Notes under the pieces: generated by a model
Seen by the model: the letters and a program-made list of their open reading frames with translations, nothing else
Database searches by the model: none
What the model was told of the DNA's origin: nothing
Position numbers and translations under genes: made by a program
Origin: Candidatus Nomurabacteria bacterium
Lineage (GTDB): Bacteria > Patescibacteriota > Minisyncoccia > Phycocordibacterales > UBA918
Length of the DNA: 64,000 bases
NCBI GenBank assembly: GCA_023898585.1
Contig: CP060229.1
Span: 526,763 to 590,762, forward strand
Direction of reading: 5' to 3'
In this document: piece by piece, positions 46,768 to 62,673 of the stretch
Numbering within the stretch: the stretch's first letter is position 1
How the letters are laid out: each line of letters begins with the position of its first letter

Positions 46768-46941
46768 ATGCCAGCAGCAAAAAAATCTGTTAAGAAGAAG
46801 GTTGCAAAAAAGGTTGTGAAAAAAGTGGCAAAGAAGACCACTAAAAAGCCAGCCAAAAAAGTTGCAAAGAAAGTTGCAAAAAAGGTTGCAAAGAAAGTAG
46901 TAAAGAAGACTGCAAAAAAGACCACAAAGAAAAAAAAGTAG
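46768..46941 (+). CDS. Lysine-rich histone-H1-like/nucleoid-associated basic protein (57 aa). It is below the 60-aa ORF-track cutoff and so not in the supplied track.
   Basis: Translation MPAAKKSVKKKVAKKVVKKVAKKTTKKPAKKVAKKVAKKVAKKVVKKTAKKTTKKKK. The DNA is a 12-nt tandem repeat (gttgcaaaRaaR). The ORF is followed by the palindrome gtctccgcggagac and a second hairpin. The only ORFs on the opposite strand are low-complexity antisense artefacts. Confidence 0.5.
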   Translation: MPAAKKSVKKKVAKKVVKKVAKKTTKKPAKKVAKKVAKKVAKKVVKKTAKKTTKKKK

Positions 46942-47051
46942 TCTCCGCGGAGACGGTTCGCCATCTCCGAGTTAAATTTGTCGCATGATCGCCCAAGATA
47001 GGGCGATTTTGCTTTGTGTTTACACGCAAATCCGTATATACTACGGCCACT

Positions 47052-47210
47052 ATGTCATTTTTGGATAGATTTTTAAGTGAACAAAGGAGCGGTAGCGACT
47101 ATTGTGAACTTACACAGGAAAATCGAGGTGAATTAGAGAACCAAAGGAGAATTCACCCGATTTTGTCGGGGGAGCGAAGGATTAGCAATTACGAATATGC
47201 TTTGACTTAA
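47052..47210 (+). other. Upstream ORF (52 codons). Its first 23 nt and 8 aa (MSFLDRFL) are an exact duplicate of the secA start.
   Basis: atgtcatttttggatagattttt occurs at 47052-47074 and again at 47222-47244. The uORF ends at TAA 47208-47210, 11 nt before the secA ATG. It contains the hairpin ggtgaatt-agagaaccaaaggag-aattcacc. Confidence 0.35.
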
Positions 47211-47221
47211 CCAACATCAGT

Positions 47222-49744
47222 ATGTCATTTTTGGATAGATTTTTCGGCCCAACTTACGAAAAGGAAATTAAAGAAATAAGACCGTTGGTTGACGAAATCA
47301 ACGCGATGGAAGAAACGATCTGCGTATTATCTGACGATTCGCTCAAGGATAAGCTTGCTAGATGTAGAGAGCGAGTTGCAATCGGAGCTTCATTGGACGA
47401 CGTCTTGCCGGAAGTTTTCGCTTTGGTAAGAGAGGCTTCAAAGAGGGTACTCAAGCTTCGTCATTATGATGTGCAAATGATCGGTGGTGTAATTCTTCAT
47501 CGTGGCAAGATTACCGAGATGCGGACCGGAGAAGGTAAAACCTTGGTAGCGACTTTACCTGCGACCTTAAATGCTCTCACCGGTAAAGGAGTTCATATCG
47601 TAACTGTCAACGATTATCTTGCTCGACGTGACGCTGTTTGGATGGGACAGATCTACGCGCAGCTTGGTTTGACAGTTGGTGTTATCAATCACGAATCGTC
47701 ATATCTTTATGACCCAGGTCACACCGAAAAAGATCAGGAAAGGGACGAACATGGTTCGTTTAAAGTGGTTTACGATTTCCTTCGACCGTGTGAAAGACAA
47801 GAAGCTTATAAAGCTGATATAACGTACGGCACCAACAGTGAGTTTGGCTTTGATTATTTACGCGATAATATCGAGTATGAAATAAGTCGCTTGAGACAAC
47901 CCAATCATTCATATGCGATTGTCGATGAGATAGACTCAATTCTTATTGACGAGGCTCGTACACCGCTCATTATTTCTGCTCCGGCAACTGACGTTGAAAA
48001 TCTTTACCCGACTTTTGCTTCCATTGCTGAGAAATTGAATATCGAAGAACACTTTACAGTTGATGAAAAATTAAAAAGCGTGGCGTTGAATGATGCCGGT
48101 ATCGAAATGGCTGAGAAGTTGCTTGGGATTGATAACATCTACACCGACAAAGGCATAAAATACGTTCATCATCTTGAGACAGCCGTCAGAGCCAAGGCGT
48201 TGTTTGTTAAAAATAAAGAGTACGTGGTACGGGACGGGGAAGTGGTTATTGTCGATGAGTTTACCGGCAGGTTACAACCCGGACGACGTTGGTCGGAGGG
48301 TCTACATCAAGCGGTGGAAGCCAAAGAAGGTGTCCCGGTGCAAAAAGAATCAAAAACTTTCGCTTCCATAACTTACCAAAATTACTTCCGCATGTATGAT
48401 AAGTTATCCGGCATGACCGGTACGGCCTTGACCTCCCAAGAGGAATTTTTCACTGTCTACAACTTAGAGGTGATTCCCGTACCGACAAACAAAACAACAC
48501 AGAGAAATGACCCTAACGATCTTATTTACCAAAACGAATCGGGTAAATTTAAAGCCATTATCAATAAAGTAAAATCGGTACACGAAACCGGTCAACCGAT
48601 TTTAATCGGTACTGCTTCGATTGAGTCAAACGAAAGACTATCGGAAGCCTTGAAGAAAGCCGGGGTGGCTCACGAAATGTTGAATGCGAAAAATCACGAA
48701 CGGGAAGGAGAGATTATCGCTGCCGCCGGAATTAAAGGAGCGGTGACCCTCGCCACCAACATGGCCGGACGTGGAGTCGATATTAAACTCGGCGGGCCGG
48801 ATGCTACCAAGGAAGAGGCCGAGGAAATCAAGAAACTCGGTGGTCTGTTTGTGTTGGGTACAGAACGTCATGAAGCGAGACGTATCGACGATCAGTTGAG
48901 AGGTCGTTCAGGGCGCCAGGGCGACCCGGGAGAAACACAATTTTACGTTTCCATGGAAGATTCACTGATGCGTATTTTTGGTGGAGCTAAGGTTCAAGGA
49001 ATGATGGGTAAATTTAAAATCCCTGAAGACCAGCCTATCACCATGAGTCTCATTTCCAGCACTCTTGACGGAGCTCAGACGAAAATTGAAGGTTTTCACT
49101 TTGATTCACGTAAGCAAATTCTCGCTTACGACGATGTGCTTAACAAACAGCGTCAGTCGATATATGCCAGAAGAAGAAAATTATTAATGGCGGATGAAAG
49201 TGAGCTTGAGAAAGTGACTTCTGAACTGTTTGAAGCAGTACCGGAAACCGAAATAATTTTCCAGGAGAAAAAAGCTGAGTTTGGCGAAGAGTTGTTTATG
49301 GACATATTTCGTCGTCTGACATTACAGATGATTGACATGTTGTGGGTAGAACATCTTGAAGTGATGGGTTACACACGGTCTAGTGTGAGCCTAAGAGCGT
49401 ATGGTCAAAGAGACCCCTTGATTGAGTACCGCAAGGAAGGAAATCGTCTCTTTAAGGAAATGAACAAGTTCTTCTACTTGCGTATAGCGGAAGTGCTTCC
49501 GAAAATACAACCACAAGCTGTAGTTAAAGAGGAAGAGGAAAGAAAACATGAAGCCGAAGTTGCTCAAGCAAATGCCGGTAATGTAGAAGAAAATACTCCC
49601 AAGAAACAGTCTCCTTTAGTCAAGGAAAAAAAATACTCAAGAAATGAAATAGTTACCATAACAAACGGCACTGAGACAAAAGAGATGAAGTTTAAGAAAG
49701 CTGAGTCAATGCTGAACTCAGGGTGGAGTATTGTGTCTAAATAA
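47222..49744 (+). CDS. secA: Preprotein translocase ATPase SecA
   Basis: 840 aa. N-terminus MSFLDRFFG. Walker A MRTGEGKTLVATLPA. DEAD-like Walker B VDEIDSILIDEARTPLIIS. Full set of SecA helicase motifs. Confidence 0.95.
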   Translation: MSFLDRFFGPTYEKEIKEIRPLVDEINAMEETICVLSDDSLKDKLARCRERVAIGASLDDVLPEVFALVREASKRVLKLRHYDVQMIGGVILHRGKITEMRTGEGKTLVATLPATLNALTGKGVHIVTVNDYLARRDAVWMGQIYAQLGLTVGVINHESSYLYDPGHTEKDQERDEHGSFKVVYDFLRPCERQEAYKADITYGTNSEFGFDYLRDNIEYEISRLRQPNHSYAIVDEIDSILIDEARTPLIISAPATDVENLYPTFASIAEKLNIEEHFTVDEKLKSVALNDAGIEMAEKLLGIDNIYTDKGIKYVHHLETAVRAKALFVKNKEYVVRDGEVVIVDEFTGRLQPGRRWSEGLHQAVEAKEGVPVQKESKTFASITYQNYFRMYDKLSGMTGTALTSQEEFFTVYNLEVIPVPTNKTTQRNDPNDLIYQNESGKFKAIINKVKSVHETGQPILIGTASIESNERLSEALKKAGVAHEMLNAKNHEREGEIIAAAGIKGAVTLATNMAGRGVDIKLGGPDATKEEAEEIKKLGGLFVLGTERHEARRIDDQLRGRSGRQGDPGETQFYVSMEDSLMRIFGGAKVQGMMGKFKIPEDQPITMSLISSTLDGAQTKIEGFHFDSRKQILAYDDVLNKQRQSIYARRRKLLMADESELEKVTSELFEAVPETEIIFQEKKAEFGEELFMDIFRRLTLQMIDMLWVEHLEVMGYTRSSVSLRAYGQRDPLIEYRKEGNRLFKEMNKFFYLRIAEVLPKIQPQAVVKEEEERKHEAEVAQANAGNVEENTPKKQSPLVKEKKYSRNEIVTITNGTETKEMKFKKAESMLNSGWSIVSK

Positions 49745-54136: not shown

Positions 54137-54862
54137 ATGTCGCGCACATTAGATATTAATGGGAGGTTGTTGCATCCGGTCAAGGAGGCGGCCGCTAGTG
54201 TTTCTTATTCAAGAGATTACGTAACTCGATTGGCTCGTGAAAATAAAATCATCGCAACCAATGTCGGTCGACAGTGGTTCGTAGATTTGGAGTCTCTCAA
54301 AGGATACATCGAGAATGTTTCCATTGAACAGGAGATACGCAAAAAGCAACTAAGCTTCGATCGAATAAAAGAGCGAGAAATCAGAGAAGCAACAATAAAG
54401 CAACATACTTTACATTTAGGTAAAGTAAAAATGTTGAATGTAAAAGCTGTCTTAGTTGCTAGCTTTGTTTTGTCGCTCGGTCTTTTTTCCGGTTTTGTCG
54501 CCCACCTGCTTATCTCATCTTCCGATTCCCTCCAAGCGCAAGTGGTCGACACGAAAGGCAGGATAGCAGATTTGTCACAACCGAATAACAACTCAAACGT
54601 AGTCGCCGAGAAAGTTTCAGATGGGAGGAGTCAAGTCTATTCTCCGGAGAACGGACTAAGAATAATGGAGGATGTGCAAAATGGAGTATTACTGCTCCCG
54701 AATTATGGTTCAACTACCGTTGAAGATTTGTTTTCCGATGCAGTGGTGGTTCGTGATTTGTCCGACGGTTCCCAAGTCATACATATGATTAATGGAGAAG
54801 GTCGGGAAGTTGGTACGGAAATACCTTTCGTGGTTGTTCCGGTAAAACATTTAAATGAATGA
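54137..54862 (+). CDS. Membrane protein with N-terminal excisionase/MerR-type HTH (HTH_17-like) domain. Paralogue B.
   Basis: N-terminus LLHPVKEAAASVSYSRDYVTRLARENKIIATNVGRQWFVDLESLKGY aligns residue-for-residue with paralogue A. TM helix VKAVLVASFVLSLGLFSGFVAHLLI follows. Its stop overlaps the start of the giant gene. Confidence 0.5.
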   Translation: MSRTLDINGRLLHPVKEAAASVSYSRDYVTRLARENKIIATNVGRQWFVDLESLKGYIENVSIEQEIRKKQLSFDRIKEREIREATIKQHTLHLGKVKMLNVKAVLVASFVLSLGLFSGFVAHLLISSSDSLQAQVVDTKGRIADLSQPNNNSNVVAEKVSDGRSQVYSPENGLRIMEDVQNGVLLLPNYGSTTVEDLFSDAVVVRDLSDGSQVIHMINGEGREVGTEIPFVVVPVKHLNE

Positions 54863-57800
54863 GTATGATTTTTAGCAAGCAAAAAATTGGAGTTGTATTC
54901 GCACTGATACTTTCTTCAAGTTTCAGTTTGTTGGTTTTTCAATCTTCTACCGCCCACGCCGAACCCACCCCCACCATCAACTACCAAGGTAAGCTAACCG
55001 ACACCAATGGCCTCGCAGTCCCTGACGGCACATACAACATGCGCTTTTGGCTACTACAAAGCGAAGCGCAAGCGACCACGAGTGCTCTTTGGACAGAATC
55101 TCTCACCGGTAGCAATAAGGTGCAAGTTACCGATGGTCTATTCTCCATCATGCTTGGTTCCACGAGCGCTCTCACTTCCGTTGACTTCAATCAAACCCTC
55201 TACCTGGGAGTGGAGATAGGTGGTTCCACCACACCCGCTTGGGACGGTGAAATGTCACCTCGTAAACCACTCGGTACCGTCCCGGCTTCTTTCGAATCAT
55301 ACAAACTAGGAGGAGTAGCTTCTTCTTCTTTCCTACGCTCTGATCAAGCCGATACCATCTCCGCCAGCACTGCTTCCACGCTACTCACTATCATTCAAAA
55401 TGGAGTGGGAGATATCCTCAATATCTTCGACGGAGCTACTGAAGTCTTCACTATCCTCGATGGTGGCAATGTCGGTATCGGCTCATCATCTCCAAACAGC
55501 AAACTCACCATCGCCGGTAATACCAACATAGACAGCTACACCAACCTCCCCGGTTACTTCATCAACTCCATGCCGGCGGTTACTGGTTCGACTACTTTAA
55601 ACAACTTCTTCTTTGCTGGGGCGTCGAGTACGAGTTACTATTTCGGAGGTTATAACTATGCTATCGGAGATGGAGCGCTCACTAACTTAAACTGGGGAAG
55701 CAACAATATTGCAATTGGTCAAAACGCTATGAAGGCATCCGGTACCGCAGCAACCAATTTCTCCAATAACAACGCTCTGGGGAAGGATGCACTTTTCTCT
55801 ATAACTAGTGGTTCAAACAATAATGCTTTGGGAGAAGGTACATTGTCTACTAATACAACCGGTGGGGGCAATAATGCTTTTGGTTACCAAGCTCTCACCA
55901 GTAACGTCTCCGGCGGAGGTAACAATGCTCTTGGCGGGTGGGCTTTGCGTTTCAACACCACTGGTATGAATAACAACGCTATCGGCCCCAATGCAATGCA
56001 AGCCAATACCAGTGGTTCATACAATAATGTTTTGGGTACAGACGCTCTTTATACCAACACCACCGGTTCATACAATAATGCTTTTGGCTATAATGCTATG
56101 TACAGCAATACCGTGGGTTCTCATAATAACGCCATCGGTGAAGCTGCACTTGGCTACAACACTACCGGCTTACGCAATAATGCTTTCGGTTACAGTGCTC
56201 TCCTTAACAACAACGGCACCGGCACCATAGCGATCGGCTACCAAACCGCCGACAACGCCACCGGCGTCGACCGCGGTATCTTCATCGGCTACGACATCGA
56301 TGCTTTCTCTACTACTCAGGACGATGTGCTCAACATTGGTAACCTTATCTTCGGTAACAGTGTCAACGGTACCGGTCAAAATATCAGTACCGGTAACATC
56401 GGTATCGCGACCACTTCTTCGACTGCTCGCTTAACAGTCCAGTCTACCGGCACCTCCGATATCCTCAATCTCTTTGAAACGGGAGGCAGTGAAGTGTTCA
56501 CTGTACTGGAGAGTGGTAACGTTGGCATCGGCACCTCTTCACCCTACGCCAAACTCGGCGTAGCCGGTAACCTGGTAGCAACCGGTGTCATCAACACGCA
56601 GACTAACTCAGCCAACACTTTCGCCGGTCACCTTGACATCAACGGCACCGCCACCTCCACCTTCGCAAACGGCATCGAACTCGAAGGTGGTTGCTTCCGC
56701 GACCAAAGTGGTACCTGCATCAGCGCTCAAGGTGACACGCAGATAGTAGTCGCAGCAAACGACACCGACGTCAATCTCAAAGCCTACGCCGACTATGTTG
56801 CGGATGGTACGAACGACCAAGATGAAATCCAGTCTGCTATCGACTACGTCTACGCTAACGGTGGGGGAACCGTTCATCTTCTAGCCGGTACTTTCACCGT
56901 TGGTACCACTACCTACACCGACTCCGCTATCAGACTCGCTACTTCTACTCAACTCATTGGACAAGGAGATGCGACCGTCATCAAACTCCGTAACAGCTTC
57001 AACGCCAACATCTCCATCGTGCACGCGAAAAACGTCCAAGATGTTTACGTTGGACATTTGGCGGTGGATGGAAACAAGGCGAATCAGAGTGGGGGGACTG
57101 ATTATGGTGTTAATTTGCAAAACACTGGATCTAGTACTGTAGAAAATACATATGTACATAGTCTCTTTTATTACGGAATAAACGTGCAGGGTAATAATAA
57201 TAATGTTGTCTCTAACACGGTTCATAATAATCAATTGAGAGGTATCCAACTGACAGGTAGTTACAATACTGCTTCCCATAATATGATTAGTGATAATGGT
57301 AGTTGGGGTATATTTGTTGATGGTTCAATGAGTAACGTAACTAATAACATTATCAAGAACAATCCTACTGGTATACGTGTTAATGCGAGTTCAAACACAA
57401 TTTCTGGTAATCAGATTAGTCAAAGTACTACTTACGGAATAGATCTATCATCGAGTGCCTCCTACAACATAATAAATAGCAACGACATTATCGTGAATGC
57501 TGGGATAGGTATATATTTGAATTTGGTGACAGGTTATAACACAATTTCAGGTAACAATGTATATTTTAATGGGTATGGTATATACCTGAACACAAGTGCT
57601 AATAATACAGTCACTGCTAACAATTTTAGTGAAAACAGTTACGGTATTTACGGGACATGCTTTGCCTGTGTCTTGAATGCCAATACACTTACCGGTAATG
57701 ACACTGCCATTTATTTGGTTAACGGGGGATTGATATCTAGCAATTCTATCACTAACAATCAATTGATAGACAACGGTGGCACTGGCGCTACCAGTAGCAT

Positions 57801-60800
57801 AACATTGGTAAACGAAGACAATGCCCTCCTTTCCGGCAACCGCATCTACGACACCGCCGGTACCGGCTATGCCATCGATATCGACGCTGCTTCAGCTGGC
57901 GTGGTGCTCACCGACAACGTCTACTCCGGCACCGGGGCTACCGCCATCCGCGACTTAAGCTCCAACACTGAGTACACCCAGCACAACCGTATCACAGTCA
58001 ATGCCACCGACTCTGACTTTGCTTCTGGCGCATACACCGCGCTTAAAATAACCCAATCCGGTACTGGAGACATTGCCAACTTCTTTGATGGCTCCAATGA
58101 GGTGCTTACCATCCTTGATGGGGGTAACGTCGGTATCGGCACCACCACTCCAACCGCTCTCCTCACTGTCGGTAGTAGTACCGCGAGCTACCTCACCGCC
58201 GGTAACCTATACAACAGCGCTCTCGTCTCCGGTGCTCTTGAAGTCGGTGGACTCTCACACTTAGGTGGTGGTCTTATGAGCTATGCTTCGAGTACCTTCC
58301 TCTCTGGTCTTTCCATTGTCGGTAACGCCACTACCACCGGTACTCTCATTGTCCAAGGCACCGGCACCTCTACCTTCGGAGGAGGACTCCAAACCACCGG
58401 CAACCTCGACATCAACGGCACCGCCACCTCCACCTTCGCCAACGGCATCGAACTCGAAGGTGGTTGCTTCCGCGACCAAAGTGGCACTTGTATCACGAGC
58501 GGTACCTACGGTGACACACAGGTGGTAGTAGCAGCGAGCGACTCTGCATCTAACGAAAAAGCCCTAGCTGACTACACCGCTGACGGTACGAACGACCAAG
58601 ATGAAATCCAGTCTGCTATCGACTACGTCTACGCTAACGGTGGGGGAACCGTTCATCTTCTAGCCGGTACTTTCACCGTTGGTACCACTACGTACACTGA
58701 CAGTGCGATTAGACTCGCTACCTCCACCCAACTGATTGGACAGGGAAAGGCGACTGTCATCAAACTAAGAGATAACTTCAACAACAACATTAACATTGTC
58801 CACGCGTACAACGTCCAAGACGTCTACGTTGGACACTTGGCGGTGGATGGAAACAGGGACAATCAAGGATCAGGGTACAATGCTGGTGTATATCTAGAAG
58901 CAGGATCTTCCACTGTTCAGTATACGTATGAGCATGATTTACGAGGTGCCGGTATTGTTGTGCAAGGTTTTGGTGTTGCCGGAGGAGGTAATAACAACAG
59001 AATAATTTCGAACGTGGCTAATTCAAATGATACCGGCATCAGTATTAGTAATAGTGATAATAACATTATTTCTGGCAACACTGCCAGCAATAACGATACG
59101 TATACTACCAGTAGCGGTATTTATTTATCGGTTAGCAAGTACAACACCATATCCAACAATATTACCAATTACAACGGACAGCACGGTATCTATTTGAATG
59201 GAACTGTTTGGTATAACACCATTTCTAATAATGTGGCAGACGGAAATACTTATGATGGTATTAGGTTGAGTTCTATAAAAAATAGTACCATTATCTCAAA
59301 CTCACTCAGTAACAATGGATTAGCTGGAATTGGTTTGTCAGTCGGTGTTAGAAACACGATAACTGGTAATTCTATCTATAACAATGTATATGGCTTATGG
59401 CATAGTAATGGTAGTAATAATTCAATCAGTGCCAATTTTATAGAAGAAAACGATTATGGTATTTACATGAATCCAGGTAACTCTAATACTGTTACTGGTA
59501 ACTATTTATACAGCAACGGTGGCTCGTCAGCCACTAGTAGCATTACCCTCATTTCATCAGACAATAATATATTTGACGGTAACTACATATACGACACCGC
59601 CGGTACAGGTTATGCTATAGATATTGATGCTTCCTCAGATAACAACGTCCTCGCTAACAACGTCTACTCCGGCACCGGGGCAACCGCCATCCGCGACCTA
59701 AGCTCCAACACCAAGTACACGGAGCACAACCGTATCACCGTCAACGCCACCGACTCTGACTTTGCTTCGGGAGCATACACCGCGCTTACCATCACCCAGT
59801 CGGGAACAGGGAATATAGCTCAGTTCTTTGACGGCGGTACCGAAGCTTTTACTATAATGGACGGTGGAAATGTGGGAATCGGAGCTACCTCAACCAGCGA
59901 CAAACTAACCATCGCCGGCAACACCAACGTCTCCAGCTACACCAACCTCCCCGGTTACTTCATCAACTCCATGCCGGCTGTTACCGGTTCGACTACTTTA
60001 AACAACTTCTTCTTTGCGGGGGCGACTTCCAGTAGTTTCTACCTCGGAAGCCATAACTACGCGATGGGAAATGGCGCTCTTACCAACCTCGGTCAAGGAA
60101 GCTACAACTTCGCAGTTGGTGGAAACGCTCTTGCTGGTTCGAGTACGGCTGGTATGCACGGTTCCAGTAACATCGCCCTTGGCTATAGCACTCTTTTTAG
60201 TAACGTCTGGGGCGAACACAACAACGCTCTTGGTAACGAAGCATTGTATAGCAACACAAACGGTGGAGGTAATAATGCTCTCGGTTACCAAGCTCTTCGC
60301 TACAGTACAACCGGTGGAGCTAACAATGCTCTCGGTTATCAAGCACTCTTCAGTAACGTAACTGGTCACCGTAACAACGCTCTTGGTTACCAAACTCTCT
60401 TCTATAACACCACCGGAGCAGACAATAACGCCATTGGTGACAGCGCACTGTTTGTCAATAGTATAGGATCACGTAACAACGCCATTGGGTACAACACCAT
60501 CTTTAACAATACCGTTGGTTCAGACAATAACGCAATCGGACATAATGCTTTGTATAGCAATACTACCGGATCACGTAACAACGCCCTCGGTTACCACACT
60601 CTATACAGCAACAACGGCACCGGCACTATCGCCATCGGCTACCAAACCGCCGACAACGCCCTCTCCGTCGATCGCAGTATCTTCATCGGCTACAACATCG
60701 ACGCCTTCAGTACCACCGCCGACGATCAGCTCAACATCGGTAACTTAATCTTCGGTAACAACGTCAACGGTACTGGTCAAACCATCAGCTCCGGTAACAT

Positions 60801-62673
60801 CGGTATCGCCACTACTTCATCTACTGCTCGCTTAACAGTCCAGTCTACCGGCACCTCCGATATCCTCAATCTCTTTGAAACGGGAGGCAGTGAAGTGTTC
60901 ACGGTGTTGGAGAGTGGTAATGTTGGGATTGGTACTTCTTCGCCCTACGCCAAACTTTCCGTATTGGAGACAGGGGGTGGATCAAAATCGTTATTCGTAA
61001 TTGCTAGCTCAACCGGTGGTACGCCAAGTGGAGTCTTTGCGGTCGATGCTTACGGAAGGGTTGGTATTGGCAGTACCTCCCCCAAAGCCTCGCTTTTTAT
61101 CGCTGACACTGTCGGTAACAATGGCGTTTCAATTGCTGAAACTGAATACCCTGATTGGATGGGAGACGGAGGTATATTTATGAAAGGGGCAGTTTTTGCC
61201 AAAGGTGGTTATATTGCGGAGAACAGCGACACTTTCCGCTGGGGAGACTCTTCAACCAGGATAGGCGGTGTTGGAAGTTCCGGTACAGGATACTTTACGT
61301 TTGACACGGAGTCTACGGAGCGCATGCGCCTTACCGGCAGTGGCTACCTCGGCATCGGCACCACCACCCCCAACTCAAAACTCACCGTCAACGGTACCAC
61401 CACCATCGGAATGTATGGTGCAACCAGTACTCAAGCCGGGCTTCAAATTGGCTTCGGCGGAATCTGTGTCGACAATGACGGCTCCTGCGTTGCTTCCACT
61501 ACCGGCCGAATCTCAGCCGTTAACTTCCATACCGGCAACTCCGACCTAGCGGAAATGTACTTCAGTGATGTCGAATTACTGCCTGGAGAGCTGGTTTCTT
61601 TAATCAGCGGGTTCTCGGTAGATAGAGCAAGTAAGAAAGACTCTGCCCCTGTGCTTGGTGTAGTTTCCACCAAACCAGGATTGCTTCTTGGTCACGATGA
61701 TACTTCGCTAAACGAAGGGGAAACCGGTTACCCAATAGCACTATCCGGACGTGTGCCAGTTAAGATTTCTACCGAAAACGGAGTAATCAAACGAGGCGAC
61801 CAGCTCATGCTCTCGTCTCTCCCTGGAATTGCTATGAAAGCAACCGGCACCGGTATGGTAGTCGGTATAGCACTCGAAGACTTCAATGAAGGTAGAAAGT
61901 ATTCAGACGGCTACATCAATCAAGTTAATGATGATCTTGGCACTACCACTCCGGAAGAAGTGGAAGAGATTGCAAGAAAGATGATCAAAGAACGAACTGA
62001 TACTGAATACCTTGATAACGGCACTACAGTTAGAGTGGGACAAGTGGTAATGTTTGTTAACAGTTCTTATCGGTGGTTGGATGATCGGGAATTGGCCGGA
62101 CTGCAGACACTAATGAGCACGTCAAATATTACCGTCTTTGGTAAAAACGAAAACGAAACTCTATTTGATCGCTTAGTTATGCTGGCCAATCGGTTTGTCG
62201 ATGGGATACTTTCAGTCTTTGAACTCAGGGCCAACCGAGTAGAAGTAGCCGATGAACTTTGTGTTGATGATGTGTGTGTGACTGCCGATGATCTGCGAGC
62301 GTTACTACAAGACGACGAACGTCTGTCTGGTGGTAACAATAATACTGCTGTGCCAGATACTGACGATAACGGTGGTGCGACTCCGGATGTCGATACGGAT
62401 GGTGACTACACGTCTACAGTTAAGGACGAACAACAACCAGAAGAAGATAATATAGATGTGCCGATTGAATCAGTTTCTGATGATGCGGTAGCGGGGAATA
62501 GTACCGATGGAGATTTAGGTTCCGAATCAACCCTTTCAACTGAACAGACGACAGAGACAGAAGAGGAAAGTACCGTCTCTGAATCGGAGTCAGAATCTGA
62601 AACTGTGGCAAATGAAGAGACTTCTATCGAAGAAGCAGCGCCGGGAGTAACAACAGAAGAACCAACGACATGA
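54859..62673 (+). CDS. Giant (2,604 aa) secreted mosaic surface protein related to tail-fibre/tailspike proteins. It has a signal peptide, five or more GNVGIGTxxP tail-fibre motifs, two 17-residue NNAxG repeat tracts, two pectate-lyase-3-type right-handed beta-helix domains, a C-terminal tail-fibre-like domain and an acidic tail.
   Basis: Signal peptide MSMIFSKQKIGVVFALILSSSFSLLVFQSSTAHA. Two copies of DGTNDQDEIQSAIDYVYANGGGTVHLLAGTFTV, resembling the Pectate_lyase_3/tailspike N-cap. Each is followed by PbH1-type repeats (e.g. NNIISGNTASNNDTY...YNTISNNITNYNGQHGIYLNG). Repeat tracts (NNALGYQALxSNTTGxx)n of YadA-head/Hep_Hag style. Repeated motif FTVLESGNVGIGTSSPYAKL. The single ORF is uninterrupted over 7.8 kb. 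Confidence 0.8.
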   Translation: MSMIFSKQKIGVVFALILSSSFSLLVFQSSTAHAEPTPTINYQGKLTDTNGLAVPDGTYNMRFWLLQSEAQATTSALWTESLTGSNKVQVTDGLFSIMLGSTSALTSVDFNQTLYLGVEIGGSTTPAWDGEMSPRKPLGTVPASFESYKLGGVASSSFLRSDQADTISASTASTLLTIIQNGVGDILNIFDGATEVFTILDGGNVGIGSSSPNSKLTIAGNTNIDSYTNLPGYFINSMPAVTGSTTLNNFFFAGASSTSYYFGGYNYAIGDGALTNLNWGSNNIAIGQNAMKASGTAATNFSNNNALGKDALFSITSGSNNNALGEGTLSTNTTGGGNNAFGYQALTSNVSGGGNNALGGWALRFNTTGMNNNAIGPNAMQANTSGSYNNVLGTDALYTNTTGSYNNAFGYNAMYSNTVGSHNNAIGEAALGYNTTGLRNNAFGYSALLNNNGTGTIAIGYQTADNATGVDRGIFIGYDIDAFSTTQDDVLNIGNLIFGNSVNGTGQNISTGNIGIATTSSTARLTVQSTGTSDILNLFETGGSEVFTVLESGNVGIGTSSPYAKLGVAGNLVATGVINTQTNSANTFAGHLDINGTATSTFANGIELEGGCFRDQSGTCISAQGDTQIVVAANDTDVNLKAYADYVADGTNDQDEIQSAIDYVYANGGGTVHLLAGTFTVGTTTYTDSAIRLATSTQLIGQGDATVIKLRNSFNANISIVHAKNVQDVYVGHLAVDGNKANQSGGTDYGVNLQNTGSSTVENTYVHSLFYYGINVQGNNNNVVSNTVHNNQLRGIQLTGSYNTASHNMISDNGSWGIFVDGSMSNVTNNIIKNNPTGIRVNASSNTISGNQISQSTTYGIDLSSSASYNIINSNDIIVNAGIGIYLNLVTGYNTISGNNVYFNGYGIYLNTSANNTVTANNFSENSYGIYGTCFACVLNANTLTGNDTAIYLVNGGLISSNSITNNQLIDNGGTGATSSITLVNEDNALLSGNRIYDTAGTGYAIDIDAASAGVVLTDNVYSGTGATAIRDLSSNTEYTQHNRITVNATDSDFASGAYTALKITQSGTGDIANFFDGSNEVLTILDGGNVGIGTTTPTALLTVGSSTASYLTAGNLYNSALVSGALEVGGLSHLGGGLMSYASSTFLSGLSIVGNATTTGTLIVQGTGTSTFGGGLQTTGNLDINGTATSTFANGIELEGGCFRDQSGTCITSGTYGDTQVVVAASDSASNEKALADYTADGTNDQDEIQSAIDYVYANGGGTVHLLAGTFTVGTTTYTDSAIRLATSTQLIGQGKATVIKLRDNFNNNINIVHAYNVQDVYVGHLAVDGNRDNQGSGYNAGVYLEAGSSTVQYTYEHDLRGAGIVVQGFGVAGGGNNNRIISNVANSNDTGISISNSDNNIISGNTASNNDTYTTSSGIYLSVSKYNTISNNITNYNGQHGIYLNGTVWYNTISNNVADGNTYDGIRLSSIKNSTIISNSLSNNGLAGIGLSVGVRNTITGNSIYNNVYGLWHSNGSNNSISANFIEENDYGIYMNPGNSNTVTGNYLYSNGGSSATSSITLISSDNNIFDGNYIYDTAGTGYAIDIDASSDNNVLANNVYSGTGATAIRDLSSNTKYTEHNRITVNATDSDFASGAYTALTITQSGTGNIAQFFDGGTEAFTIMDGGNVGIGATSTSDKLTIAGNTNVSSYTNLPGYFINSMPAVTGSTTLNNFFFAGATSSSFYLGSHNYAMGNGALTNLGQGSYNFAVGGNALAGSSTAGMHGSSNIALGYSTLFSNVWGEHNNALGNEALYSNTNGGGNNALGYQALRYSTTGGANNALGYQALFSNVTGHRNNALGYQTLFYNTTGADNNAIGDSALFVNSIGSRNNAIGYNTIFNNTVGSDNNAIGHNALYSNTTGSRNNALGYHTLYSNNGTGTIAIGYQTADNALSVDRSIFIGYNIDAFSTTADDQLNIGNLIFGNNVNGTGQTISSGNIGIATTSSTARLTVQSTGTSDILNLFETGGSEVFTVLESGNVGIGTSSPYAKLSVLETGGGSKSLFVIASSTGGTPSGVFAVDAYGRVGIGSTSPKASLFIADTVGNNGVSIAETEYPDWMGDGGIFMKGAVFAKGGYIAENSDTFRWGDSSTRIGGVGSSGTGYFTFDTESTERMRLTGSGYLGIGTTTPNSKLTVNGTTTIGMYGATSTQAGLQIGFGGICVDNDGSCVASTTGRISAVNFHTGNSDLAEMYFSDVELLPGELVSLISGFSVDRASKKDSAPVLGVVSTKPGLLLGHDDTSLNEGETGYPIALSGRVPVKISTENGVIKRGDQLMLSSLPGIAMKATGTGMVVGIALEDFNEGRKYSDGYINQVNDDLGTTTPEEVEEIARKMIKERTDTEYLDNGTTVRVGQVVMFVNSSYRWLDDRELAGLQTLMSTSNITVFGKNENETLFDRLVMLANRFVDGILSVFELRANRVEVADELCVDDVCVTADDLRALLQDDERLSGGNNNTAVPDTDDNGGATPDVDTDGDYTSTVKDEQQPEEDNIDVPIESVSDDAVAGNSTDGDLGSESTLSTEQTTETEEESTVSESESESETVANEETSIEEAAPGVTTEEPTT
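56423..56555 (+). repeat. Intragenic near-identical DNA repeat, copy 1 of the ARLTVQSTGTSDILNLFETGGSEVFTVLESGNVGIGTSSPYAKL module. Copy 2 is at ~60824-60958.
   Basis: About 77 consecutive identical nucleotides (ctgctcgcttaacagtccagtctaccggcacctccgatatcctcaatctctttgaaacgggaggcagtgaagtgttcac) and about 130 nt at >90% identity, read directly. Confidence 0.8.
58585..58690 (+). repeat. Intragenic near-identical DNA repeat (beta-helix N-cap DGTNDQDEIQSAIDYVYANGGGTVHLLAGTFTVGTT), copy 2. Copy 1 is at ~56806-56912. The adjacent DINGTATSTFANGIELEGGCFRDQSGTC repeat is at ~56634-56712 and ~58409-58484.
   Basis: About 106 consecutive identical nucleotides between the two copies. Identity then decays to mostly synonymous differences. 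Confidence 0.8.

Follow-up and report, generated by a model that had tools for sequence, protein, structure and literature searches.

A candidate structured leader with an upstream open reading frame at the start of a probably ancestrally leaderless secA gene in Candidatus Nomurabacteria

SecA is essential. To our knowledge, hardly anything is known about the control of its level outside the secM arrangement of the Enterobacteria type, and nothing for the uncultured Patescibacteria (candidate phyla radiation, CPR). Several systems described in other organisms come close to the arrangement reported here. In mycobacteria, leaderless short open reading frames (ORFs) act as cis-regulators (PMC4633059; bioRxiv 10.1101/834739), and in E. 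coli 70S ribosomes bind to AUGs at the very 5′ end of leadered mRNAs, with effects that can reach the cistron downstream (PMC4965119). A ribosome that translates across the pyrBI attenuator suppresses it (PMC5021804), and the distances from leader stop codons to the following start codons peak at 10-11 nt, which has been read as re-initiation (PMC4833913). Here we analyze the 5′ region of secA in a 64,000-nt (64-kb) stretch of the Candidatus Nomurabacteria contig CP060229.1 (positions 526,763 to 590,762). This stretch is hereafter the window; positions are given within it, and the features described in it lie on the + strand. The start of the gene is duplicated there, and the extra copy opens an upstream ORF (uORF) of 52 codons. 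We propose that the locus is a lineage-restricted structured leader in an ancestrally leaderless secA gene and that uORF translation is coupled to SecA output, a reading to which we assign a probability of about 0.5. The structural and evolutionary statements on the leader are well supported; as to how it would work, we put the odds at about even.

The 23-mer ATGTCATTTTTGGATAGATTTTT has two exact copies in the window, 170 nt apart (47052-47074 and 47222-47244), and gave no match in 100 dinucleotide shuffles. A sequence-only reading of this DNA had pointed out an exact 23-nt duplication of the secA start, and the pair is indeed unique in the window; the length of 26 nt that it also gave was a miscount, the exact repeat being 24 nt with the preceding T included (47051-47074 and 47221-47244) and 27 nt if one mismatch is allowed (CACTATG... 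vs CAGTATG...). The downstream copy (47218..47244) is the present start of an intact, full-length secA gene (47222..49744) that encodes 840 aa with SecA_DEAD, PP_bind, P-loop and SW domains. An assembly artefact is ruled out by two independent assemblies with the identical structure: Logan contig SRR15882951 and ENA contig ERZ28658300 match the window at 100% identity across 8.5 kb and 5.9 kb, respectively, and both include the whole structure. With the aim of dating the insertion, a protein collection of 5.8 billion was searched for SecA proteins whose identity to that of the window lies between 82% and 100%, and none was found.

The position of the upstream copy is best understood from the relatives. 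In most of about 95 of them the secA ATG lies 6-10 nt (mode 9) past a conserved −10 box, with the peak of the distance distribution at 9 nt (73 loci). The order is the terminator of a lysine-rich gene, a TTGTNT box, a 17-nt spacer, a TATATACT-type −10 box, 6-10 nt and the ATG, and the block TTGTNT..TATATACT..8-9 nt..ATG is kept in the 14 relatives that were aligned. Since this promoter geometry has no room for a 5′ untranslated region (UTR), secA appears to be leaderless or nearly so in the clade, and the arrangement implies that the secA mRNA of most relatives begins at the AUG or within about 3 nt of it. The predicted secA promoter of the window (47014..47042) consists of a −35-like TTGTGT (47014-47019), a 17-nt spacer and a −10 box TATACT (47037-47042), which is followed after 9 nt by the ATG at 47052, the geometry typical of the clade. 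Transcription would thus start at an A near 47049, 3 nt ahead of the upstream ATG. Because it is positioned exactly at the promoter-adjacent site of the clade, the upstream copy (47048..47074; predicted ancestral mRNA 5′ end, start codon at 47052 and codons 1-8) can be taken as the positionally ancestral secA start, and it is very probably a working start. Some relatives are annotated with a longer SecA of 857-869 aa. We considered whether these proteins reflect similar insertions and rejected the idea, since the gene callers had read through the promoter −10 box as '-VYTT-'.

The extent of the duplication is also informative. Across 36 species, secA shows next to no synonymous variation in codons 2-8 (TCA in 31/32, TTT in 33/35 and GAT in 31/35), and from codon 9 onward synonymous variation is free. 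This pattern indicates that the first ~23 nt of the secA mRNA are under constraint at the nucleotide level, and since the extent of the repeat coincides with the frozen part of the gene, the duplicated 23 nt can be regarded as a nucleotide-constrained 5′ module. Each carrier genome has lineage-specific variants that its two repeat copies share, codon 6 being of the R type in the window and of the K type in contig L089 from another species (see below); the two copies presumably stay alike because the 23 nt are a constrained secA initiation module.

When the window was aligned with 14 relatives using MAFFT, the only difference in arrangement was a single clean gap of 170 nt. As the upstream copy is the ancestral start, the insertion would consist of 146 new nucleotides plus the duplicated first 24. 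It did not arise by simple tandem duplication, as the similarity stops abruptly after nt 23 of the repeat. Nor does the insert show significant similarity to the window's own secA, its score being 23 against a shuffle mean of 25. The latter result speaks against a remnant of a partial secA duplication, in which the upstream piece would be a decayed pseudogene copy. That the upstream piece begins with the secA start would fit such an origin, and so would a stretch of 51 nt in the leader of another locus, L095, which is 38/51 identical to codons 495-512 of its own secA (score 43 vs a shuffle maximum of 34); the profile of the leader unit designated E2 also weakly matches the same secA region in many loci. 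Decay, however, would not leave behind a core that is 84-88% identical between species and contains covarying hairpins, and we judge a pseudogene origin highly improbable. The stretch in question lies at L095:1124-1174 and corresponds to nt 1485-1534 of that secA (EGEIIAAAG..GAVT).

The conserved core became apparent when further carriers were found. Contigs encoding protein P0121 (L083, L084, L089 and L090, one of them a 311-kb NCBI contig) come from a different species; its SecA, P0016, and that of the window are 80% identical. A pattern search of metagenomes with an invariant 20-mer returned L084, three chance matches and the third carrier, L086; a first pattern taken from the 3′ arm of the second hairpin described below had given no match. 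In L086 a 12-nt deletion has left only ATGTCATTTTT of the upstream copy, and there is a 1-nt indel within the core. Among the three carriers, a core of 94 nt (AAGTGAAC...TTTTGTCG) is 84-88% identical in pairwise comparisons, on par with the second codon positions of secA, whereas the four-fold degenerate sites of secA are only 28-36% identical, i.e. saturated. The ~50-nt tail ahead of the secA ATG shows 51-56% identity, which is the level of shuffled sequences. This contrast means that the core is under purifying selection, and the selection acts at the RNA level and not on the peptide read from the core. It also largely refutes already the notion of a neutral scar, that is, a one-off illegitimate insertion or duplication without function that has not yet been removed. 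Most relatives thrive without the insert, 24-nt repeats spaced by 170 nt favor precise deletion, and a small tandem duplication is known at the same site in another relative (L018). Nevertheless, the core identity across species with saturated synonymous sites, the compensatory base-pair changes in the first hairpin and the lack of resemblance between the sequence after the upstream repeat and that after the secA start, which leaves no simple tandem duplication, make such a scar very unlikely. The sequence-only reading had offered 'the scar of a small duplication' as an alternative; an insertion with a duplicated target did take place, but what was inserted is a conserved structured RNA under purifying selection.

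RNAalifold predicts two consensus hairpins in the leader. The first, H1 (47074..47112), is common to all leader subtypes and is built from a UAAGU/ACUUA and an ACAA/UUGU stem with a tandem G.A internal loop between them and a conserved apical loop. In an alignment of six sequences all 59 cells of its 10 pairs are paired (100%), compared with only 20-42% for slid controls; compensatory changes occur in 4/10 pairs, and the covariation score was reached by 0/500 shuffles. G-U pairs place H1 on the sense strand. A covariance model of H1 (R1) recovers every copy, and seven copies in six genomes lie in secA 5′ leaders in sense orientation. The model was searched in 708 kb of relatives' DNA, comprising secA neighborhoods, and found one copy outside the locus, an H1-like hairpin at L017:5918-5974 (40 bits, E ~9e-6) right after a holin-like gene and ~150 nt before obg; part of its 3′ half recurs (CCGACTATTGCG) ~85 nt downstream. 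H1 is followed in the window by an invariant single-stranded linker, CACAGG (47113..47118), which is part of an invariant 21-mer, TTGTGAACTTACACAGGAAAA (47102-47122).

The second hairpin, H2, together with the conserved UUUUGUCG that follows it (47119..47168), is terminator-like and a candidate attenuator. The hairpin GGTGAATT-N15-AATTCACC noticed in the sequence-only reading is present at 47127-47157 and extends into a longer helix, a 15-bp stem at 47119-47164 with one bulged A, in which AAAAUCG-a-GGUGAAUU pairs with AAUUCACC-CGAUUUU around a 15-nt loop. Two compensatory pairs (UA>CG and CG>AU) were seen in the three sequences available, for which 68/500 shuffles were as good. The ΔG of the stem is −10.3 compared with −12.8 for the genuine intrinsic terminator of the upstream gene (GATCGCCC-N6-GGGCGATT plus a T-tract, 46987..47018), which closes the transcription unit upstream of secA and keeps its position in relatives. 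The loop of H2 measures 15 nt and its U-tract only 4 U, and the consensus terminator scan was silent because the loop exceeds 8 nt. The remainder of the leader is a G-poor, poorly conserved tail (47169..47221) that contains the uORF stop and an 11-nt spacer; neither a Shine-Dalgarno (SD) sequence nor a −10 box was found in it.

Related leaders are present at the same secA site in L095 (150 nt, 5′ ATG lost), L004 (234 nt) and L008 (193 nt), and as the outer leader (139 nt) of L089, which carries two leaders in tandem in the order promoter-ATGT-E2, a −10-like remnant, then ATGTCATTTCTAGACAAATTTTT-E1-tail-secA. These four have H1 and lack H2, and L095 looks like the tandem arrangement of L089 after an internal deletion. 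The leader family is thus defined by H1 with its tandem G.A loop, to which the subtype of the window adds the terminator-like H2 and a U-tract. In the leaders without H2, H1 starts 2-5 nt from the predicted 5′ end, a position that would suit an mRNA-stabilizing 5′ stem-loop or a protein-binding site. Comparison of the window region and the carriers' leaders with Rfam (4227 covariance models) gave chance-level matches only, at E up to 10, and the 64-kb window contains no tRNA, tmRNA or Rfam family above threshold. In a more distant subclade, L043, L049 and L057 possess another secA leader, about 130 nt upstream (e.g. L049:2852-2990) and nearly identical in the three species, which folds into a long hairpin (consensus −36.6 kcal/mol), is unrelated to H1 and H2 and has no Rfam match; on both sides of the L049 leader stands a direct repeat of 14 nt, TAGTATTATACAAT, with the −10 box inside it. 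Since this unrelated hairpin leader also precedes secA, structured secA leaders appear to recur in the group.

That the upstream copy opens an ORF of 52 codons ending 11 nt before the secA ATG, as had been stated from the sequence, was borne out. The uORF (47052..47210) runs from the 5′-proximal AUG through H1 and H2 to a TAA stop codon at 47208-47210; its peptide reads MSFLDRFLSEQ...NYEYALT, and its frame is offset by 2 from that of secA, so that the two are not in frame. It is open through the leader in all three carriers of H1 and H2, with stop codons 11 nt (window), 25 nt (L089) and 12 nt (L086) before the secA ATG, and it spans H2 in each. In L086 it stays open although the frame differs; the chance of this in dinucleotide shuffles is 0.03-0.06 per sequence for the three carriers.

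An ORF placed directly before secA and ending 11 nt ahead of it calls to mind a nascent peptide of the SecM/MifM/VemP kind, or else a decoy of the SecA N-terminus, since the peptide shares the first 8 residues of SecA in the window and 7/8 in L089. The peptide itself, however, is not what has been kept. In L086 the indel shifts the frame, leaving only MSFL in common with SecA and a peptide unrelated to that of the window after MSFLSEQ, for which the protein search found no homologue; between the window and L089 the differences are mostly non-synonymous and the C-termini divergent; and phmmer found a single homologue of the uORF among 1.84 billion representative proteins, P0121, from one carrier genome. 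The related leaders have ORFs of 4-16 codons or no 5′ ATG, hence no long uORF. The peptides of the three carriers are hydrophilic (grand average of hydropathy −1.0, −0.5 and −0.3), and that of the window has no signal or transmembrane (TM) segment that could serve in targeting, its best 11-residue hydropathy window being −0.11. A stalled ribosome would, moreover, find neither an SD nor a start-occluding stem to open. In the predicted folds of the three carriers the secA AUG is exposed, with a mean unpaired probability of 0.5-0.7 around it that is not below the transcript average, and sequestration of the start codon by leader structure was rejected on these grounds. An arrest peptide or decoy is therefore hardly credible. 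The analogy with SecM drawn in the sequence-only reading fails on the unconserved peptide, the missing targeting segment and the missing start-occluding structure, and its proposed mimicry of the SecA N-terminus fails on the frame lost in L086 and the absence of a long uORF from related leaders. A leader-peptide model fails on comparison with relatives, since most have no duplication and the frame is not kept. Its idea of an upstream leader that works through coupling fares better in part: the distance of 11 nt is of the re-initiation type and makes coupling reasonable, but the secM-like arrest has to be given up. Programmed bypassing or frameshifting between the two copies was also considered; neither a stop nor take-off features follow the first copy, and nothing in the data calls for such a mechanism.

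Another possibility is that the leader is a selfish or mobile element, or a cassette carried by recombination, that inserts at the 5′ end of secA and now and then at other places, duplicates its target and is tolerated because secA remains intact thanks to the duplicated start; its conservation would then reflect the element's own needs or a recent spread and not host regulation. We see this as an unlikely explanation on the whole, yet a serious rival. The carriers are scattered across the SecA tree. L076, the nearest neighbor of the window, and P0029/L091, the nearest to P0016 (88% identical), show the plain leaderless arrangement, as do L034, L002, L093, L094, L096 and L097. Such patchiness between close relatives, sister lineages having perfect 'empty sites', is what a mobile element would produce, and the flanking direct repeats that represent local target sequence, the tandem leaders of L089, the H1 copy between the holin-like gene and obg in L017 and the unrelated insertions or duplications at the same site in L018, L049 and L092 point the same way. 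The predicted transcription start also marks the beginning of the duplicated segment in all carriers, which would suit an RNA-mediated insertion. Several findings argue against mobility. Terminal inverted repeats are missing, with an end-to-end inverted match of 7 nt at best, and the flanking repeats measure 27, 23, 11, 7-8 and 3-4 nt depending on the carrier, unlike a transposase footprint. The element is single-copy in the window, which covers 64 kb of a genome of roughly 1 Mb (blastn-short, nhmmer and a covariance model search with filters off), no copies were found in viral contigs scanned with three patterns, all copies at secA are in sense orientation and enter at the identical nucleotide, and neither a transposase nor a reverse transcriptase was seen nearby. 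Also, given a saturated tail next to a conserved core, the three copies would be old and not recent arrivals from one source. The distribution fits one old insertion with target duplication, a later tandem duplication and repeated precise losses by recombination between the repeats.

Independent changes at the same site were noted in two other relatives. L018:2915-3010 contains a perfect 47-nt tandem duplication of the secA promoter (−10 box TATAAT), the ~20-nt 5′ UTR and the first 7 nt of the gene, which is an independent small event at the secA start site. In L092 (~1245-1375) the secA promoter is set apart from the upstream terminator by an insertion of ~125 nt, and the unit from promoter to ATG is intact.

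If the leader is indeed regulatory and coupled to SecA output, one can imagine its working as follows. Transcription would begin at about 47049, and the 5′-terminal AUG would load ribosomes as it presumably does on secA itself in relatives. Ribosomes would translate the 52-codon ORF across H1 and H2 and terminate 11 nt short of the secA AUG, and SecA would then come from ribosomes that re-initiate, from ordinary initiation without an SD on the G-poor tail, or from both. Translation of the uORF would keep H2 from acting as a terminator or roadblock, in that a ribosome close behind the polymerase would suppress the hairpin, so that SecA output would be conditional on translation of the leader and on whatever binds H1. 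Initiation independent of SD pairing would be in keeping with the genome. An SD-like 4-mer 4-12 nt before the start was found for only 4/45 genes in the window, start regions are depleted in G (0.14 vs 0.23 overall), and the 25 nt before the secA ATG have a G fraction of 0.12, typical of the SD-less starts of this genome. The low use of SD sequences agrees with the anti-SD motif being missing in about half of Parcubacteria (PMC9297842). Two further possibilities were examined and dismissed. The AAAGGAG in the loop of H2 might serve a second, SD-led internal start, but this motif is not conserved in L086 or L089. A promoter within the tail could give back a leaderless secA mRNA, but inspection found no −10-like hexamer at the distance typical of the clade.

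Several observations weigh against this scheme. Its elements, from the transcription start site and translation of the uORF to termination at H2 and re-initiation, are inferred ones. H2 was seen in three sequences, is degraded in L089 (ΔG −5.4) and was missed by the terminator scan. The outer leader of L089 and those of L095, L004 and L008 do without H2 and without a long 5′ uORF, so that coupling or attenuation cannot be what the family has in common as its function. With the secA start exposed in the predicted folds, translation of SecA may be independent of the uORF. The leaders occur patchily, since L076 and L091, which are closest to the carriers, are plain leaderless, and the H1 copy elsewhere in L017 fits a mobile or often-lost element as well as it fits a regulator. 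In addition, a loose test for TAnnnT 5-10 nt before the starts of window genes gave 13/45, compared with 11-12 at control offsets; in view of this lack of enrichment it is conservation across species that argues for leaderlessness, and for secA specifically, and we do not claim that leaderless genes are common genome-wide.

A more far-reaching version may be imagined, in which the H1/H2 leader is an undescribed sensor RNA that turns a leaderless essential gene into a two-step one. The duplicated 23-nt module would drive both a sacrificial ORF and SecA, and the sacrificial 5′ ORF, being translated across the terminator-like hairpin, would license read-through. We regard this as a long shot. Were it true, SecA dosage would follow how much 70S/leaderless initiation the cell can sustain, or else a factor, possibly SecA, that binds H1. 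As to its origin, such a leader may have been brought in by an RNA-templated event, since the duplicated segment of every carrier begins at the predicted start of transcription.

Some features around the gene may be recorded here. Upstream of secA lies an ORF of 57 aa (46768..46941) that is rich in lysine, alanine and valine and histone-H1-like, with KKVAKK repeats and a 12-nt periodicity in its repeats. It is a syntenic neighbor of secA in relatives, always found between murB and secA, where the intervening ORF varies from 57 to 122 aa and is uncalled in some assemblies. A very large ORF of 2604 aa occupies 54859-62673 (+) of the window. Downstream of secA, L008:5900-6160 holds a cluster of sub-threshold Rfam matches on both strands, which suggests a strongly structured or palindromic intergenic region.

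In any case, the locus is of interest beyond the mechanism proposed. The comparative evidence for a leaderless secA across a large clade of Paceibacteria, with a 23-nt 5′ module frozen at the nucleotide level, is strong, and two conserved structured secA leaders absent from Rfam have come to light, the H1 family and the unrelated hairpin of L043, L049 and L057. The loci form a natural series, from leaderless through 5′-uORF plus leader to plain leader, of how a leaderless gene may gain a 5′ regulatory region while its start is kept. They also offer testable material for leaderless initiation and re-initiation in organisms largely without SD pairing.

In operation, the closest counterparts of the proposed leader among described systems would be 5′-terminal uORFs, leaderless regulatory short ORFs, the pyrBI-type attenuator and termination-reinitiation. 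As in the 5′-uORFs of E. coli (PMC4965119) and mycobacteria, an AUG at or near the mRNA 5′ end opens a short ORF before the gene, and the likeness extends to ribosome loading without an SD and to a possible influence on the downstream cistron. Here, however, a 24-nt duplication would have preserved the ancestral start of the gene itself as the 5′ AUG, and the ORF crosses two conserved hairpins, has no codon run of the poly-Cys kind and precedes an SD-less start. With pyrBI (pyrL) the locus shares a leader ORF of ~44-52 codons that runs across a terminator-like hairpin and U-tract (PMC5021804); it differs in having no evident UTP-sensitive pause logic, in a 15-nt loop and a 4-U tract known from three sequences, and in a putatively leaderless start of the uORF. 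The distances of 11 nt in the window and 12 nt in L086 are near the 10-11-nt peak described for termination-reinitiation (PMC4833913) and that of 25 nt in L089 is outside it, although coupling may be dispensable here, SD-less, G-poor starts being the rule in this genome. Integrating elements such as those using tRNA-gene attB/attP sites, and insertions resembling miniature inverted-repeat transposable elements (MITEs), likewise have flanking target repeats, leave the gene intact and are patchily distributed. The insert, in contrast, measures 146 nt, has no integrase and no inverted repeats, is bounded by repeats of variable length, sits at the 5′ end of a protein gene and is present once in the window. 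Finally, secM-secA, MifM-YidC2 and VemP-SecDF2 resemble the locus in that an upstream ORF immediately precedes a gene for protein export. The uORF of the window lacks a signal peptide or TM segment and a conserved arrest motif, its peptide is not conserved, and there is no start-occluding stem; unlike in those systems, the conserved entity here is the RNA and not the peptide.

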